A stretch of DNA of 64,000 nt from Candidatus Krumholzibacteriota bacterium (GTDB lineage: Bacteria; Krumholzibacteriota; Krumholzibacteriia; JAJRXK01), in the NCBI GenBank assembly GCA_963727455.1, contig CAVSGG010000005.1, positions 288,001-352,000 on the forward strand. The letters are read 5' to 3'. The notes beneath the pieces are model-generated. The model searched no databases. It was not told the DNA's origin and saw nothing but the letters and a program-made list of their open reading frames with translations. The position numbers and the translations under genes were made by a program. Shown here piece by piece: positions 49,577 through 56,770 of the stretch (position 1 is its first letter; each line of letters begins with the position of its first letter).

Positions 49577-50845
49577 TTGTCGCAGCTGACAAACTCTCCG
49601 GAGATCGAGTTGGGAACCTCGCGACGGGTCAGCGCCGTGGCGGGTCTTTCGGCGCTCTACGGTCTGCGTTTGTTGGGCATGTACCTGGTGCTCCCCGTGC
49701 TCAGCCTCTATGCCGCGAACCTGCGCGGCGAAACCGCTCTTCTCATCGGCATGAGTCTGGGGATCTACGGATTTTCTCAGGCTCTTTTTCAGATCCCCTT
49801 CGGAATCTGGAGTGATCGTTACGGCAGGCGCCGAATCATCGCGGCGGGCCTCTTGCTCTTTGCGATCGGGAGTGCCGTCGCGGCGCAGACCCACTCCATT
49901 TACGGCCTCATTCTGGGGCGCTTTCTCCAGGGTTCGGGCGCAGTGGCTTCGGCGCTGGTAGCGCTCATGGCCGATCTCAGCGGTCCGCGCTACCGCGCGC
50001 GAGCCATGGGGGCCGTCGGGGTTTCGGTGGGCATTGCTTTCGCGACGGGAATGGTGTTCGGACCCACTGTCTACGAGCGTCTGGGGGCTCCGGCGATATT
50101 TTGGCTCACGGCCGCGCTCTCCCTCCTGGGAATTTTCTACGTCGGGATCGCCGTTCCCAAGGGTCGCGCCTGGGAACACGATCACGAGATGGAGTGGACG
50201 AGAGGCCAGACCACAACCCTCCTGCACCATCCCACGCTTCTGCGACTCGACGCGGGCATTCTCGTGCTTCACCTCTTGGTGACCGCAGCCTTTGTCGTGG
50301 GCCCGACCTACCTCTCGCTCTACCGTCCGGTGGAGCAGCACGGCAGTATCTATGCACCCATCGTTTTGGCCGGCGTCGTCGTACTTGCGATCTCCGTTTT
50401 CATTTCCGATCGCTGGGGACGTTTGCGGGAGGCCATCGTGGTGGGGGGGCTGCTCCTCTTGGCCTCGACCGTGTTGTTGCTCTTCGCCACCCGCGGTCTC
50501 GGCTACTCCATCGCGGTCATCGCCTGCATGGTGGGTGGGATCGCGATCGCCGAGCCCGCGATGCCCGCCCTCCTCACGCGCCTCGTCTCCTCTGATCAGA
50601 GGGGAACCGCCGCGGGCATCTTCCACACTTCACAGTTCATGGGCTCGTTCTTGGGGGGGATGCTCGGCGGCGCTATGCTGCGCCATCCCAAACTCATCGG
50701 TTTCATTCTGGTCGCCATCGCGAGTAGCTGGGCCATCGTCAGCGTGGGTCTTCTCACCAAGAGGGACAGGGCTACGAGTGCCAGTCCCTCCGCTCCTGCC
50801 AGCGAGCATGCAGAAAAAAGGCGAGAGGCGCGAGGGCGAGGGTGA
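49577..50845 (+). CDS. MFS transporter (YajR-like)
   Basis: RLLGMYLVLPV, QIPFGIWSDRYGRR, GRFLQGSGA. Confidence 0.88.
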   Translation: MSQLTNSPEIELGTSRRVSAVAGLSALYGLRLLGMYLVLPVLSLYAANLRGETALLIGMSLGIYGFSQALFQIPFGIWSDRYGRRRIIAAGLLLFAIGSAVAAQTHSIYGLILGRFLQGSGAVASALVALMADLSGPRYRARAMGAVGVSVGIAFATGMVFGPTVYERLGAPAIFWLTAALSLLGIFYVGIAVPKGRAWEHDHEMEWTRGQTTTLLHHPTLLRLDAGILVLHLLVTAAFVVGPTYLSLYRPVEQHGSIYAPIVLAGVVVLAISVFISDRWGRLREAIVVGGLLLLASTVLLLFATRGLGYSIAVIACMVGGIAIAEPAMPALLTRLVSSDQRGTAAGIFHTSQFMGSFLGGMLGGAMLRHPKLIGFILVAIASSWAIVSVGLLTKRDRATSASPSAPASEHAEKRREARGRG

Positions 50846-51734
50846 GAATCCAGCCCGCGAGCGCGTCCACCCCGTAATGGAATCCGCCGTAGACCGTGCC
50901 AACGGTCAAGGCGGGGACGAGCGCCGCGAGGAACCAGCTTGCCTTCTTGCTGCGCGCCTTGAGAACCACGATCCAACAGATTGCGGCCACGGCACAGTGC
51001 GAACTGGGGAAGGCCGTTCCCACCGAAGAGCCCGAGTGCAGAATGGAATGTACAAGCGGGGGGAAAAAGGGTCCCATGAGATGGGGATCGGGCTCGGGGA
51101 AGTGATGGAAGGGACCGGCCACGGGAAAGCCTACGAACACGAGTTGACAGGCCACGAAGACGAGAACCAGGGCAGTGAGATACTCCTCGACATCCGACCA
51201 GCGCCCCTTTGCGGCGAAGGCCACGAGCGGAGTGGGTATGATCAGGTAGTAGCTCAAGTACGCGAAATGCAGATATTCGGACAGCCACAGGTATGGCAGG
51301 CGTTGGTGAAGGATGAGAGGTAGCACCTGCCCATGGAAGAGCGCGCGTTCCAGAGTCAGAATCGAGGAGTCGAAATAGCGCGAGGCGAAGAACATGTCGT
51401 TCAGTTCGCGCGCCTCGGTATAGAGCAGGGGGATGAAAAGCAAAGGTAGAATGCGGCGTGCTAGCGCCAAGGTTCTGCTCGGAATCCGAGGCGGCGACCA
51501 GCGCAGGCTGAAGATCACAAGAGTGAGCGACAGGTTGACGAGGAACAAGCGCAACCAGTGGGCGACTCCCGCGTGAAAGAACGGGAGCAGCAGGACCGTC
51601 AAGAACAGGTAGGCGCACAGAATTGCCTCGGAGGGGCGCAGACCGCGACCGAACTGTTCCAGGCCCAGGCTCCGAACGGAAGGGCCCGGTAGCTCCTTCT
51701 CGACCTTTGACTGTGTGCGCTCCGTCACAGCCAT
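50772..51734 (-). CDS. PAP2-superfamily membrane enzyme, AUR1/inositol-phosphoceramide-synthase-like
   Basis: FPVAGP, AFPSSHC, FHYGVD motifs, multiple TMs; last gene of the spt operon. Confidence 0.75.
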   Translation of the reverse strand: MAVTERTQSKVEKELPGPSVRSLGLEQFGRGLRPSEAILCAYLFLTVLLLPFFHAGVAHWLRLFLVNLSLTLVIFSLRWSPPRIPSRTLALARRILPLLFIPLLYTEARELNDMFFASRYFDSSILTLERALFHGQVLPLILHQRLPYLWLSEYLHFAYLSYYLIIPTPLVAFAAKGRWSDVEEYLTALVLVFVACQLVFVGFPVAGPFHHFPEPDPHLMGPFFPPLVHSILHSGSSVGTAFPSSHCAVAAICWIVVLKARSKKASWFLAALVPALTVGTVYGGFHYGVDALAGWILTLALAPLAFFLHARWQERRDWHS

Positions 51735-52699
51735 CCTTCCCCACGATACCAGCGCATCGTCGCCTCCATTCCCTCCAGGAGGGGAATCTGGGGCCGGTAA
51801 CCAAAGGCCGCTTCTGCCGCCTGGCTGCTGCAGCTGTAGGAGGGAGCGCAGAAGTCGCGCGCTTTCTCTCTGCCGAACATGGCCTGAACTCGCACGAGGC
51901 CGTGCACGGCGTCGTTCAAGGTTCCTGCTGCGAGGACCAGCCAATCGGGCAGAGTCACAACGAAGACGCGATGCGACGAGGCGTTCGCGAGAGCTTGGCC
52001 GATTTCCCGCCAGGTGTGGGGCGAACCATCCGTGAGAAAGTAAGTTCCCACGCCGCGCCTGTGCTCAGAGGCAGCCAAGAGGCCTGAAACGAGATCGTGC
52101 ACGTGGACCAGTGAGAGATGACGCTCGGCAGAGCCCACGCAAAAGGCAAAGCCACGCTCGGCCAGGCGGAAGAGGGAAAGGGTCGCGGTGTCTCTGGGGC
52201 CGTAGACTGCTGGGGGACGGATCACGGTCAAGTCCGGTCCGGAGAGGGCCGCCAGCGCCACTTCCGCTTCCAGCTTGGAACGGCCGTAGAGGCTGTGTGG
52301 ATGCGCATCGTCTCCCTCGCGGTAGATGGTCCCCTTCTCGCCACGACCCATGGTGGCGAGACTGGAGACGAAGATGAAGCGCCCCTCGGCTGGCGCGACC
52401 TTCGCGAAGCGGCGGTAGAGGGTGAGGGTGGCATCGATGTTCACGCGCCGGAAGATCTCCCACTGCGCCCCCTTGAGGACAGCCGCGACGTGAAAGACGC
52501 GGTCGACCCCATCGAGCGCCTGTGGGGGAATCTCGCCGTGCGCGAGCTCGCCGTGGTGGACCTGCACTTTCGAGGTGTCTAGAAAGCGGAGATTCGAACT
52601 GGCACGCACCAGCACCCGAACCTCCTCCTTTGCCCGCACAAGCGCATCCACGAGATGGCTTCCCACGAAACCGTTCGCGCCGGTTACCAGAACCGCCAT
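51725..52699 (-). CDS. NAD(P)-dependent epimerase/dehydratase-family reductase, putative ceramide reductase
   Basis: TGANGFVG, YGRSK, RPPAVYGP; gene context. Confidence 0.75.
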   Translation of the reverse strand: MAVLVTGANGFVGSHLVDALVRAKEEVRVLVRASSNLRFLDTSKVQVHHGELAHGEIPPQALDGVDRVFHVAAVLKGAQWEIFRRVNIDATLTLYRRFAKVAPAEGRFIFVSSLATMGRGEKGTIYREGDDAHPHSLYGRSKLEAEVALAALSGPDLTVIRPPAVYGPRDTATLSLFRLAERGFAFCVGSAERHLSLVHVHDLVSGLLAASEHRRGVGTYFLTDGSPHTWREIGQALANASSHRVFVVTLPDWLVLAAGTLNDAVHGLVRVQAMFGREKARDFCAPSYSCSSQAAEAAFGYRPQIPLLEGMEATMRWYRGEGWL

Positions 52700-52708
52700 G
52701 GCGGAACC

Positions 52709-53830
52709 TCAGAGCTCTCTCTGATAAATGCGGTAGATGCGGTAGGGTTCTCCCGCGAACTTCTTCAGAGGAACGATCATCGGTAAATTGTCTTCCAGAA
52801 CCCAGGAGCACTCGGCCCATTCGTAGCCCTTGGCCAGCCCCGCTCGTACCACGGCTTGAATGAGTACCCCGTCCAGACCCCTTCCGCGCATTTCGGGCAC
52901 GATGCCCAGAGTGACGACTCGGATCCCGTCGATCTTGCGCTTGTACCACAGAATCTTTAGCAGGCCGAACGGAAAGAGGCGGCCGTTGGCCTCCTTCAGG
53001 GCCACATTCAAATCGGGCAGCCCGAGGATGAAGCCGTGAGCTTCCCCGCTCTGGGCATCCTCCAAGAAAAAGACCACGTCGGGATCGATGCCGTAGCGCA
53101 GTTCGGAAGCGAAGTGGCGCACTTCGCCTTCGGTCATGGGAACGAATCCCCAGTTCTTTTCCCAGCAGCGGTTGTAGAGCGCGAGGATGCGGTCGACTTC
53201 ATTGGAGAAGTCTTTCATGTTGAGTTTGCGCAAACGGACTCCGTGTCGCTGCATGAGCTTGTCCGCCAACGCGAGGAGCCTGTCGAGCTCATTGCTCTTG
53301 CGCACCTTGAAGGCTAAGAGGTCCTTCGCCTTGCGGAGGCCGGCCGCTTCGTAACGCGCGGGATACCAGGCTGGATTGTAGCTCATCATGACGACCGGCG
53401 GACCGGGCTCTCCCTCCACCAAGAGCCCACAACTCTCGTTGGTGGAGAGTTCGAACGGTCCCATGGCGTGCGTGCGTCCCCTCTCCTTCAGCCAGGAAAA
53501 CGCCTCCGCGAAGAGCGCATTCGAGGCCTCGTCATCTTCGCGCAGTGCGTCGTGAAATCCGAAGAACCCCGCTTTGTCTCCGTGGAACTCGTTGTGAGCC
53601 CGATTGACGTGCGCCACCACTCGGCCCACCACCTCGCCGTTGCGCAGGGCAAGGAAGGGCTGCACCTCGGCGTGCTCATGGAAGGGATGCTGCCCAGGGG
53701 TGAGCAGCTTGCTCACATCTGCCTTGAGAGGAGGCACCCAGTTGGGGTCGCCCTGATAGATCTTCCATGGAAAGTCGATGAAACGCTTCAGATCGGCGCG
53801 ACCTTGCACCGGATGGATACTCAGGCTCAT
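52709..53830 (-). CDS. GNAT-fold N-acyltransferase, putative bacterial ceramide synthase
   Basis: FIDFPWKIY.GDPNWVPPL, GFFGF, STNESCGLLVEG, YNPAWY, NWGFVP, SWVLEDN; directly downstream of SPT. Confidence 0.75.
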   Translation of the reverse strand: MSLSIHPVQGRADLKRFIDFPWKIYQGDPNWVPPLKADVSKLLTPGQHPFHEHAEVQPFLALRNGEVVGRVVAHVNRAHNEFHGDKAGFFGFHDALREDDEASNALFAEAFSWLKERGRTHAMGPFELSTNESCGLLVEGEPGPPVVMMSYNPAWYPARYEAAGLRKAKDLLAFKVRKSNELDRLLALADKLMQRHGVRLRKLNMKDFSNEVDRILALYNRCWEKNWGFVPMTEGEVRHFASELRYGIDPDVVFFLEDAQSGEAHGFILGLPDLNVALKEANGRLFPFGLLKILWYKRKIDGIRVVTLGIVPEMRGRGLDGVLIQAVVRAGLAKGYEWAECSWVLEDNLPMIVPLKKFAGEPYRIYRIYQREL

Positions 53831-53851
53831 GAACGCTCTCCCTGCTGAAAC

Positions 53852-55081
53852 TCAGATGAGTCCCAGTTCCTTTCCGACCCGGCGGAAGATCTCGAGAGCG
53901 CGGTGAAGCTGATCGTCGGTGTGCGTTGCGATGTACGAGGTCCGCAGCAGCGCCTTGCCTTCGGGTACCGCGGGGGACACCACCGGGTTCGTGAAAACTC
54001 CACCGTCCAAAAGCGCCCTCCACAATTGGAAGGCCATCTGTGATTCACCGATGACGATGGGTATGATCGGTGTCTCGGTGCTTCCCACGTCCCAACCCAT
54101 TCCGGCCAACTCGTTCTTCATAAGATTCTGGATCTCCCACAGCCGAACGCGCCGCTCGGGCTCGGTCCGGATGATCTCCAGGCTCTTCAAAACGGTGGCT
54201 ACCGCATAGGGGGGCATGGCGGCTGAGAAGATCATGGGTCGCGCGTTGTGGCGCAGGAAATCGATGACCGAGCTGTCTCCGGCCATGAATCCGCCGATCG
54301 AGGCGAAGGACTTGGAGAAGGTTCCCATGATGAGATCCGTTTCCCCGGCCAGTCCGAAGTGGTCGGTGACCCCGGCTCCTTTGGGACCGACGACTCCCAG
54401 CGAATGGGCTTCGTCGACCAGGACGCGCGCCCCGGCGGCATGCGCCAGATTGAGAACATCGGGTAAGGGTGTCAGGTCACCGTCCATCGAGAAGACCCCG
54501 TCGACCGCGATGAGCACGCCGCGGGTGGTGGGGATCCTCTCGAGTTGGTCCGCCAGATCGCGCATGTCGTTATGGCGAAAACGCGCGACCTGTCCGGGGG
54601 ACATGATGGCGCCGTCGACGATGCACGCGTGATCCAGCTTGTCGATGAGGGCAGTGTCGTCCCGACCCACCAGAGCCGCTATGCAGCCCAAGTTGGTTTG
54701 GTATCCGGTGGAGAAGACGAGGGTCTCCTCCTTGCCCACGAAATCCGCCAGCTCGGCTTCCAGTTTCAAGTGCAAGTCGAGGGTGCCATTCAAGAAGCGG
54801 CTTCCCGTGCAGCCTGCCCCGTAGGAGCGGGAAGCGGCCTCACCCGCCTCGAGCACGCGGGGATCATGGGTGAGCCCCAGGTAATTGTTCGAGCCCAGCA
54901 TGACCACCGGCTTGCCAGCGATCGTAACCTCGGTCCCTTCGCTTCCCTCGATCGGGATGAAATAGGGATACAGCCCAGTGGCGCGAGTTTCGCGGGCTCG
55001 GGTGTAGGAGGCGGCCTTCTGAAAGACATCCTCGCGCTCTTGGGTATTGGTTTTCCGACTGGTCTGTGGATTTGGATTCAT
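53852..55081 (-). CDS. spt: Serine palmitoyltransferase (alpha-oxoamine synthase family)
   Basis: GLYPYF, LGSNNYLGLT, GSRFLNGT, DEAHS, GTFSKS(FASIGG), HNARPMIFSA. Confidence 0.8.
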   Translation of the reverse strand: MNPNPQTSRKTNTQEREDVFQKAASYTRARETRATGLYPYFIPIEGSEGTEVTIAGKPVVMLGSNNYLGLTHDPRVLEAGEAASRSYGAGCTGSRFLNGTLDLHLKLEAELADFVGKEETLVFSTGYQTNLGCIAALVGRDDTALIDKLDHACIVDGAIMSPGQVARFRHNDMRDLADQLERIPTTRGVLIAVDGVFSMDGDLTPLPDVLNLAHAAGARVLVDEAHSLGVVGPKGAGVTDHFGLAGETDLIMGTFSKSFASIGGFMAGDSSVIDFLRHNARPMIFSAAMPPYAVATVLKSLEIIRTEPERRVRLWEIQNLMKNELAGMGWDVGSTETPIIPIVIGESQMAFQLWRALLDGGVFTNPVVSPAVPEGKALLRTSYIATHTDDQLHRALEIFRRVGKELGLI

Positions 55082-55654: not shown

Positions 55655-56770
55655 ATGCGAATCCTCGAGCTGGGAAAATTCTACCCCCCGGTGCGTGGCG
55701 GGATGGAGAGCACCCTCGAGCAGATCTGCCTCGGGTTGCGCCGGCGTGGGCACCGGGTCCTGGCCCTGGTGTCCGCCGACGAGCGGCGAGCGAGCGCGAG
55801 CTACCGCAAGGGAGTGGCGGTTTGGCGTCTGGGACGCTGCGGACAGATCGCCAGCAGCCCGGTGAACCCTGGCTTGGCGCGCGCGCTGCGGCGTGCTCGC
55901 TCGCAATTTCGCCCGGAACTTGTGCACCTCCATCTGCCCAACCCTGCGGTGGCGGTGGGCTGGCTGCTCTTCGGCGACCCCGAGCTGCCTCTGGTCGTCA
56001 GTTACCACAGTGACATCATTCGGCAGCGCCGTCTGGCCTCGCTACTGGAGCCTTTGCGCCAACGGGTTCTCACCCGCGCGAGGAGAATCGTGGTGAGCAG
56101 CGAAGATCTGAAGCGCTCGAGCAGAAGCCTGGCGGCACATCGGGAGCGCTGTATCGTCATCCCATGGGGCATTGACGTGGAGACGATTCTCCCCGGTGGG
56201 GCCCCGAGTCGGGAGAGTCTCCCCTTTCCTCGCTATTTTCTCTTCGTCGGCCGAATGGTGTATTACAAAGGTTTGGACGTCTTGTTGGCCGCTCTGAAGG
56301 GTGAGAACATGTCCCTGGTCGTGGTCGGAGAAGGACCTCTGCGGGCGCGCTGGGAAAAACAAACGCGCAGATACGAGCTCGGCGATCGTGTGTACTTCGC
56401 GGGCGACGTCTCCCCCCAAGCGCTGGACAAGCTCTATCGCGGTTGCGTAGCCCAAGTCTTGCCCAGTACCGCGCCGAGTGAGACTTTCGGATTGGTGCAA
56501 CTGGAAGCCATGGCGCGTGGCCGGCCCGTCGTGGCGGCAAGGGCGTCGGGTGGTGTGGCCTCCGTGCAGGAGGATGGAATCACCGGACTGCTAGTACCCC
56601 CGGCTGAGGTCGATTCCCTGCGGAGTGCACTCAAGACCCTGTGGGACGATCCGCGCCGTGCCGAGAGCATGGGACAGGCGGCGCGCAAAAGGGTGGTCGC
56701 GCATTTCGACCAGGGGCAGCGGATGAGGCAGCTGGCCAGAGTTCTCGAGGGGCTCGTCGCGAATGAGTGA
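55655..56770 (+). CDS. GT4-family glycosyltransferase
   Basis: MRILELGKFYPP..GGME, HLHLPNP, FVGRMVYYKG, ETFGLVQLEAMA. Confidence 0.92.
   Translation: MRILELGKFYPPVRGGMESTLEQICLGLRRRGHRVLALVSADERRASASYRKGVAVWRLGRCGQIASSPVNPGLARALRRARSQFRPELVHLHLPNPAVAVGWLLFGDPELPLVVSYHSDIIRQRRLASLLEPLRQRVLTRARRIVVSSEDLKRSSRSLAAHRERCIVIPWGIDVETILPGGAPSRESLPFPRYFLFVGRMVYYKGLDVLLAALKGENMSLVVVGEGPLRARWEKQTRRYELGDRVYFAGDVSPQALDKLYRGCVAQVLPSTAPSETFGLVQLEAMARGRPVVAARASGGVASVQEDGITGLLVPPAEVDSLRSALKTLWDDPRRAESMGQAARKRVVAHFDQGQRMRQLARVLEGLVANE

Follow-up and report, generated by a model that had tools for sequence, protein, structure and literature searches.

The 64,000-nucleotide window analysed here (contig CAVSGG010000005.1, positions 288,001 to 352,000) belongs to the genome of a Candidatus Krumholzibacteriota bacterium (3.46 Mb, 88.85% complete and 6.68% contaminated) and contains a compact operon of four co-directional open reading frames on the minus strand at positions 50772..55081. 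Gene 1 (spt, 53852-55081) encodes a predicted pyridoxal phosphate (PLP)-dependent α-oxoamine synthase of 409 residues with a catalytic lysine at K257, and gene 2 (52709-53830, 373 residues) a GNAT N-acyltransferase of the YghO/bCerS family, the bacterial ceramide synthase type. Gene 3 (51725-52699, 324 residues) codes for a CerR-type NAD(P)-dependent reductase of the extended short-chain dehydrogenase/reductase (SDR) type, and gene 4 (50772-51734, 320 residues) for an Aur1-like PAP2_3 putative membrane phosphotransferase with the triad H246, H286 and D290. Genes 1 and 2 are separated by 21 nt and genes 2 and 3 by 9 nt, and genes 3 and 4 overlap by 10 nt, in agreement with the tight packing described in an earlier note on this DNA. 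The 320-residue form of gene 4 starts from the ATG at 51734; the protein collection lists a form of 318 residues, which would begin two codons further on, where a GTG overlaps the stop of the preceding gene. The Pfam matches are Aminotran_1_2 (gene 1), a weak GNAT (gene 2, E 2e-4), Epimerase (gene 3) and PAP2_3 (gene 4), and none of the four proteins reaches an NCBIfam cut-off, while most homologues of gene 4 carry the name 'phosphatase'; the remark of the earlier note that automated annotation would likely miss the pathway is a fair one. The same note had taken the host for a probable candidate-phylum bacterium, which holds, as the three closest named records, with GNAT proteins 73-91% identical, are titled Candidatus Krumholzibacteriota or Krumholzibacteriia; the genome also encodes LpxC, as in a Gram-negative lineage. 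We propose, with a probability of roughly 0.6, that this four-gene cassette makes dihydroceramide and then a phosphosphingolipid, here most likely inositol phosphoryl-dihydroceramide.

A search of the PDB revealed that gene 1 best matches the serine palmitoyltransferase (SPT) of Sphingobacterium multivorum (SmSPT), with 438 bits in a gap-free alignment over 385 residues, compared to 311 bits for Sphingomonas SPT, 259 for Kbl, 232-240 for cysteate acyltransferases and 195-203 for BioF. The SPT-type motifs YPYF, GSRFLNGT and GTFSKS are all present. Among 23 mapped SmSPT residues (a set taken from PMC10196870), 20 are identical in gene 1, the changes being S53N, A79T and M271I. All ten residues of the PLP and serine pocket (N52, G80, S81, H138, S185, D210, H213, T241, S243 and K244 in SmSPT) are identical, and all 70 cassette Spts keep these ten unchanged. 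In a quick tree, which held no BioF or HemA row and had two long branches, gene 1 falls in a 40-row Spt clade (SH-aLRT 98) that also holds the Spt of E. coli, Sphingomonas and Bacteroides, and the four Kbl-type rows lie outside it. A second oxoamine synthase of the same genome is Kbl-like and differs from SmSPT at G80, S81 and S243. Among 13 models, NF047600 scores highest on gene 1 (518 bits, below its cut-off of 640), and the NCBIfam Kbl and BioF models score 371-381 bits; only 8 of 251 genomes in a Bacteroidota-phylum sample reach the NF047600 cut-off, which therefore marks a narrower clade, and at E 1e-140 the model finds 143 of the 251 without separating the Spt classes. Cysteate C-fatty acyltransferase was also considered for gene 1 and rejected: these enzymes have a G-A loop, an alanine before the catalytic lysine and a second lysine (A82, A249 and K280; PMC13692747), and the corresponding residues of gene 1 are G93-S94, S256 and A287. 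Altogether, these comparisons support gene 1 as a serine palmitoyltransferase.

Gene 2 aligns over its full length with YghO of E. coli BL21 (35% identity over 381 columns, E 4e-77) and is the sole YghO match in the genome; a PDB sequence search with this protein gave no solved homologue. In PMC9386255, YghO is listed as the predicted counterpart of Caulobacter CC_1154, and ECD_02852 as the reductase counterpart. Gene 3 shares 31% identity with ECD_02852 (E 6e-31) and is its best match in the genome, with 91 bits vs 32 bits for the next protein in one direction of search. It possesses the motifs TGxxGFxG at residue 6 and YxxxK at residue 138, scores 127 bits on the HpnA model against a cut-off of 368, and its top plasmid matches by bits adjoin spt genes. 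The Caulobacter CerR is reported to be periplasmic (PMC11087976); gene 3 has no signal-like or hydrophobic segment, its Rossmann motif beginning at residue 6. The assignments of a bCerS-type GNAT and a CerR-type reductase are supported by these similarities, and genes 1 to 3 very probably form ceramide. The earlier note had further read the gene order as the pathway order. Deletion of the counterparts in B. fragilis leads to accumulation of 3-ketosphinganine and keto-ceramide (bioRxiv 10.1101/2023.05.23.541633), intermediates that fit the gene order here, yet gene order is no proof of reaction order, and this part of the argument does not stand as evidence.

Comparison of related loci showed the gene order spt-GNAT-reductase-PAP2 at 60 of 91 loci from four phyla, 59 of them by locus comparison, with all genes on the same strand, and one (L030) added by profile match. 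The 91 loci combine class relatives with the best 80 of 83 matches of a GTDB scan by six peptide patterns, a scan biased toward close kin, after removal of three duplicates. The full cassette is held by Krumholzibacteriota relatives, many Gemmatimonadota, two Acidobacteriota and one Eisenbacteria record, and spans 3977-5004 nt (median 4205, 51 loci measured). An orthologous GNAT is encoded by 14 of 40 class-level relatives, and in all 14 the four genes stand in order. Since the same four genes recur in order and on one strand in 59 of 91 loci and in L030, the arrangement is more than chance. The 31 loci lacking the full cassette comprise 10 cut by contig ends, 3 with a reductase and no adjacent PAP2 gene, 5 with spt and GNAT in another layout, 1 paralogue and 12 with the GNAT alone. 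Clustering of the frames flanking the cassette gave no fifth family common across phyla, and neither acpR nor aasR was found with the cassette among the genome matches and flanking-frame clusters.

Gene 4 gave no match in a PDB search as a single sequence. A profile built from 47 homologues, in contrast, has its best match in yeast Aur1 (E 3e-6), extending over positions 18-287 of 296; phosphatases match only over the C-terminal 60-70 positions. The predicted model (pLDDT 92.8) also has Aur1 as its best Foldseek match (E 4e-4), and superposition by VIA-align yielded a Z-score of 19.2 for Aur1, with 260 aligned residues and a root-mean-square deviation of 4.2, compared to 15.9 for LpxE (164 aligned) and 14.1 for PgpB. 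All 47 homologues keep H246, H286 and D290 unchanged, and these residues align with H255, H294 and D298 of Aur1, the triad of its two-step H-H-D mechanism (PMC13133130). The family is large, with 1295 representatives at E 1e-30. The PAP2 phosphatases are marked by the motifs KxxxxxxRP (C1) and SRxxxxxHxxxD (C3), and neither KxxxxxxRP nor SRxxxxxH occurs in any of the 47 homologues. Profile, fold and motifs together support the head-group transferase proposed in the earlier note over a phosphatase, and head-group transfer is the probable role of gene 4.

Several points stand against the proposed pathway. The protein scores only 17 bits on NF052609, the model of the Aur1-like B. thetaiotaomicron BT_1522, against a cut-off of 480; in a quick tree it sits on a separate branch, and the sole BT_1522-like row (325 bits) lies outside its clade on a long branch. 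These results rule out gene 4 as an orthologue of BT_1522; the BT_1522-like protein in turn scores 38 bits on the cassette PAP2 profile. Moreover, at the three Gemmatimonadota loci with a reductase mentioned above, no gene 4 lies beside it. One could suppose that genes 1 to 3 make ceramide and that gene 4 is a hydrolase, resembling a lipid phosphate phosphatase or phospholipase C, which serves lipid recycling and adds no head group. Its fold is common to LpxE and PgpB, its H-H-D triad to phosphatases and transferases alike, and its best NCBIfam match is an undecaprenyl-diphosphatase model (E 3e-4). This alternative is nevertheless unlikely, as the lysine and arginine residues of the C1 and C3 motifs are missing from all 47 homologues, the similarity to Aur1 extends far beyond the C-terminal part matched by phosphatases, a PgpA-family phosphatase is encoded elsewhere in the genome, and no ceramide-kinase family accompanies the cassette.

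The likely donor of the head group in this lineage is phosphatidylinositol (PI), as judged from the gene inventory. Unlinked to the operon, the genome encodes a myo-inositol phosphate synthase (MIPS), a PgpA-family phosphatase and CdsA. Searches with Pfam, a PgsA profile from relatives and a motif scan found one CDP-alcohol phosphotransferase, which is closest to phosphatidylinositol phosphate (PIP) synthases in both NCBIfam and the PDB. Exactly one such enzyme is present in each of the five genus genomes, the four congeners being 93-98% complete, and the three congener copies that were classified (that of G001 is outside the three) are all of the PIP-synthase type. A PgsA-grade match is lacking in all 10 family genomes and in all 23 genomes of families f1-f3 (best E 8.7e-15) and present in 18 of 18 genomes of families f4-f8 (E 4.8e-19 or better). 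Psd is likewise missing from the 17 genomes of f1 and f2, including the 10 of the family. PI is thus favoured by elimination, because the single CDP-alcohol phosphotransferase is of the PIP-synthase type and no PgsA or Psd match is left. In B. thetaiotaomicron, the same four-enzyme route leads to PI, and an Aur1 homologue then forms PI-ceramide (PMC9246714). The cassette and the loss of pgsA do not go together, since family f3 (6 genomes), G006, G007 and G035 lack pgsA as well as the cassette and G033 has both.

This inventory also holds points that tell against PI as the donor. It rests on an incomplete and partly contaminated genome, and the PIP-synthase-type protein falls below both NCBIfam cut-offs (156 of 180 and 137 of 170 bits). 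Lgt, which uses phosphatidylglycerol (PG) in E. coli, is present in five of five genomes checked; retained without a PgsA-grade match, it leaves room for an undetected donor. The same room is left by the only phospholipase D (PLD)-family protein found (L130 1306-2553, contig C9 of the host genome G000), an unclassified protein of 415 residues with a signal-like N-terminus. Extra CDP-alcohol enzymes, likewise unclassified, occur in the relatives G005, G010, G015 and G030. Among 36 cassette genomes of other phyla, drawn from 46 full-cassette GTDB loci, MIPS is found in 29, vs 5 of 14 genomes without the full cassette, kin not being independent in this count. The other 7 of the 36, both Acidobacteriota included, have no MIPS match, and 34 have a PgsA-grade match; inositol is therefore not fixed for the family, and the elimination fails outside this lineage.

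The same pathway might carry a non-inositol head group, taken from PG, phosphatidylethanolamine (PE) or another donor made by unassembled genes or by the PLD-family protein. The missing part of the genome, the PLD-family protein and Lgt leave space for it, G033 combines the cassette with PgsA and Psd, and gene 4 has its nearest named kin in Bacteroides, whose core sphingolipid is PE-ceramide. This too is unlikely for the present organism, given the single CDP-alcohol phosphotransferase of its four more complete congeners, PIP-synthase-like in the three classified, and the absence of Psd from all 17 genomes of f1 and f2. Inositol remains the somewhat favoured head group here.

The chemistry of inositol phosphoryl-dihydroceramide formation, each step of which we infer, would run as follows. 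Spt would condense L-serine and a fatty acyl thioester, giving 3-ketosphinganine, the acyl donor being probably acyl-CoA (or a housekeeping acyl carrier protein, ACP), because no acpR or aasR travels with the cassette. The YghO-type GNAT would attach the N-acyl chain and the SDR would reduce the 3-keto group, in either sequence. The Aur1-like enzyme would then move the phospho-head group of a glycerophospholipid to H286, releasing diacylglycerol, and pass it on to the 1-OH of ceramide with H246 as the base. The glycerophospholipid would probably be PI, supplied by the unlinked MIPS, PIP-synthase-type enzyme, PgpA-family phosphatase and CdsA.

Further analysis of the gene 4 family led to Bacteroides. 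The nearest named kin is an uncharacterised PAP2 protein of Bacteroides finegoldii (WP_237923849.1), whose gene overlaps a cerR-like gene; the same pair exists in Prevotella sp. F0039, where the PAP2 gene follows the cerR-like gene. These proteins match the profile at 99.85% over 276 columns (158 and 178 bits), have the same motifs, and form one clade with the cassette proteins (SH-aLRT 98, quick tree). The neighbouring reductase, by its profile score of 237 bits, appears to be orthologous to CerR of B. fragilis. All Bacteroides tested have PE-ceramide as their core sphingolipid (PMC10056535, PMC10191378), and a 2022 study (PMC8791184) reports that its homology search gave no ceramide-phosphoethanolamine (EPC) synthase and that residual inositol phosphoceramide (IPC) is seen without BT1522. 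The PAP2 gene overlapping the cerR-like gene is, by association, a candidate for the EPC synthase of Bacteroides.

The order to which G320 belongs, probably Bacteroidales, offers a wider view, with the PAP2 clade in 15, Spt in 31 and both in 9 of 101 genomes. A CerR-like or YghO-like gene lies within 1.5 kb of the PAP2 gene at 14 of 16 loci; six PAP2 loci are beside a reductase, all six in Spt-positive genomes. Two observations weaken the tie to ceramide. The PAP2 clade occurs without Spt in six genomes (the five checked all lack an Spt-grade protein, their best match to gene 1 being 33-38% identical), and it is missing from 22 of the 31 Spt-positive genomes; the clade is therefore an accessory one and not always a ceramide enzyme. 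The ceramide link does not extend to the sister subfamily with the motif RDxFPSGH, which prevails among the 62 genomes, of 251 in the phylum sample, with scores of at least 120 bits, since only 2 of the top 30 loci have a ceramide gene within 1.5 kb.

These distributions bear on another alternative, namely that the operon makes a non-canonical amide lipid, with Spt using another amino acid or gene 4 having as its substrate some N-acyl amino alcohol that is not ceramide. The PAP2 genes of Spt-negative genomes (L268-L270, L272, L273) have a divergent YghO paralogue (24-28% identity) as their partner, 12 of the 91 loci contain a YghO-like gene on its own, and the S. multivorum SPT is described as weakly accepting alanine and glycine. 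The pocket residues G93, S94, S256 and N130 are nevertheless those of SmSPT and differ from the cysteate enzymes, the phosphotransferase would require a 1-OH that only serine-type bases provide, and the cerR-adjacent PAP2 copies in the order of G320 are confined to Spt-positive genomes, so that this alternative is quite unlikely. That gene 1 is Kbl or BioF, surrounded by unrelated housekeeping enzymes, finds a point in its score below the NF047600 cut-off and is very improbable in view of its lower scores on the Kbl and BioF models, its place in the tree, the separate Kbl-like gene, the order kept in 60 of 91 loci, and the location of most of the examined 470-520-bit proteins in spt-bcerS clusters.

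Returning to synthesis of a phosphosphingolipid, we tentatively suggest a broader picture, as a possibility short of an even chance. Gene 4 may represent a second, widespread family of bacterial ceramide head-group transferases apart from BT_1522, which uses whichever phospholipid the host provides. Its Bacteroides cerR-linked member might then be the missing EPC synthase and also account for the IPC left in the BT1522 mutant, and the Krumholzibacteriota lineage, seemingly without synthesis of PG, phosphatidylserine or PE, might build a lipid-A-bearing envelope with PI and inositol phosphoceramide as its phospholipids. If this were true, a Gram-negative lineage with PI as its sole detectable phospholipid derived from CDP-diacylglycerol would have an unusual membrane, and environmental inositol phosphoceramides would gain a bacterial source.

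The operon is flanked by two plus-strand genes. A GT4 glycosyltransferase gene (55655-56770), divergent from spt at a distance of 573 nt, is found at the same position in five family relatives (G001-G005, 386-685 bits) and is absent from the other cassette loci; its product could glycosylate the sphingolipid. On the other side, a major facilitator superfamily transporter gene (49679-50845) converges on gene 4 and overlaps its 3' end by 74 nt, a neighbourhood kept in the relatives G001-G005 only. A sigma-70 promoter scan at the operon gave no match (0.8 expected), and a terminator scan predicted 7, against 4.9 ± 2.1 expected. The RNA of one run (share 0.06) contains a single 266-nt contig that is identical and lies within spt, and five pieces that are short and unlike, supporting neither transcription nor habitat.

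Variants of the cassette were also observed. A plasmid of the cultured actinobacterium Rubrobacter radiotolerans (NZ_CP007515.1; L180, 6701-12293) carries spt, GNAT and reductase in the same order, with a gene of the lipoteichoic acid (LTA)-synthase family in place of PAP2, whose product is possibly another head-group transferase. In Nonomuraea gerenzanensis (L183, 7545-12465), a PAP2 gene of the same clade (161 bits) converges on reductase and GNAT, accompanied by an ACP-like frame and, reading in two frames, an spt-like gene. L232 (3806-14880, genome G284) has spt, GNAT and reductase, followed at a distance of about 7 kb downstream by a true BT_1522-like PAP2 (325 bits on NF052609). In three Planctomycetota records and a Candidatus Aegiribacteria record (L054, L061, L076 and L091), the reductase is divergent and upstream of spt and GNAT, and in L091 a PAP2 gene converges on the GNAT. 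A Priestia megaterium plasmid (L239, 5998-7212) has a solitary Spt-like gene with 50% identity to gene 1 and neither a GNAT nor a reductase nearby. In G033 (L033 6637-8747, contig C33), a divergent YghO-like GNAT (26% identity) directly precedes the gene for a phosphatidylserine decarboxylase; further uncharacterised genes surround the pair, which possibly belongs to a different amide-lipid pathway.

We found no publication on the four-gene operon, on the gene 4 PAP2 clade or on an identified Bacteroides EPC synthase in a search mostly outside subscription journals; searches on sphingolipids in Krumholzibacteriota, and on sphingolipid, SPT or polar lipids in Gemmatimonas and Gemmatimonadota, gave nothing relevant. 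One study reports Spt-like genes, often with bCerS and CerR nearby, from 38 phyla, the total being 40 (PMC11334938); the main text of that paper names neither Krumholzibacteriota nor Gemmatimonadota, which may nevertheless be among the 38, and we do not claim a new phylum for the pathway.

The first three genes belong to the enzyme families of the known bacterial ceramide pathway, as represented by Caulobacter (CCNA_01212, CCNA_01222), E. coli BL21 (ECD_02854, ECD_02850 yghO, ECD_02852) and B. fragilis (BF9343_4218, BF9343_4240). Full-length identity to the E. coli counterparts, to which this comparison was confined, is 40% for Spt, beside the 35% and 31% of GNAT and reductase. Unlike in the known pathway, the genes here form one compact spt-bcerS-cerR operon, with a head-group gene attached and no acpR or aasR. 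The operon Spt is nearer to the Sphingobacterium and Bacteroides type than to Sphingomonas SPT, and it shares the oxoamine synthase fold with the cysteate C-fatty acyltransferases of sulfonolipid synthesis (CapB/SulA), from which it differs at the pocket positions given above. Yeast IPC synthase Aur1 (PDB 9ivc, 9vj3/9vj4) is the best solved match of gene 4 by both profile and fold, with the triad and the AFPSxH and HYxxD motifs in common; however, identity is only 17-20%, gene 4 has PVAGP compared to PAAPP in Aur1, and no Kei1-like partner is seen in the cassette. BT_1522, the characterised bacterial PI-dihydroceramide synthase, considered here with BT_1523, BT_1525 and BT_1526, shares the Aur1-like PAP2_3 fold, and counterparts of its PI route are present in the genome, but it belongs to a different subfamily and sits with inositol genes, whereas gene 4 sits with ceramide genes. 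The B. finegoldii and Prevotella PAP2 genes follow the reductase as in the operon, and their head group may differ because their hosts have other phospholipids. Altogether, the ceramide genes represent a known and widespread pathway and add one more lineage to its list. The fourth gene matters more: it is an uncharacterised, Aur1-like gene outside the BT_1522 family, and through it the operon singles out, by association, one Bacteroides gene, the PAP2 gene that overlaps the cerR-like gene.

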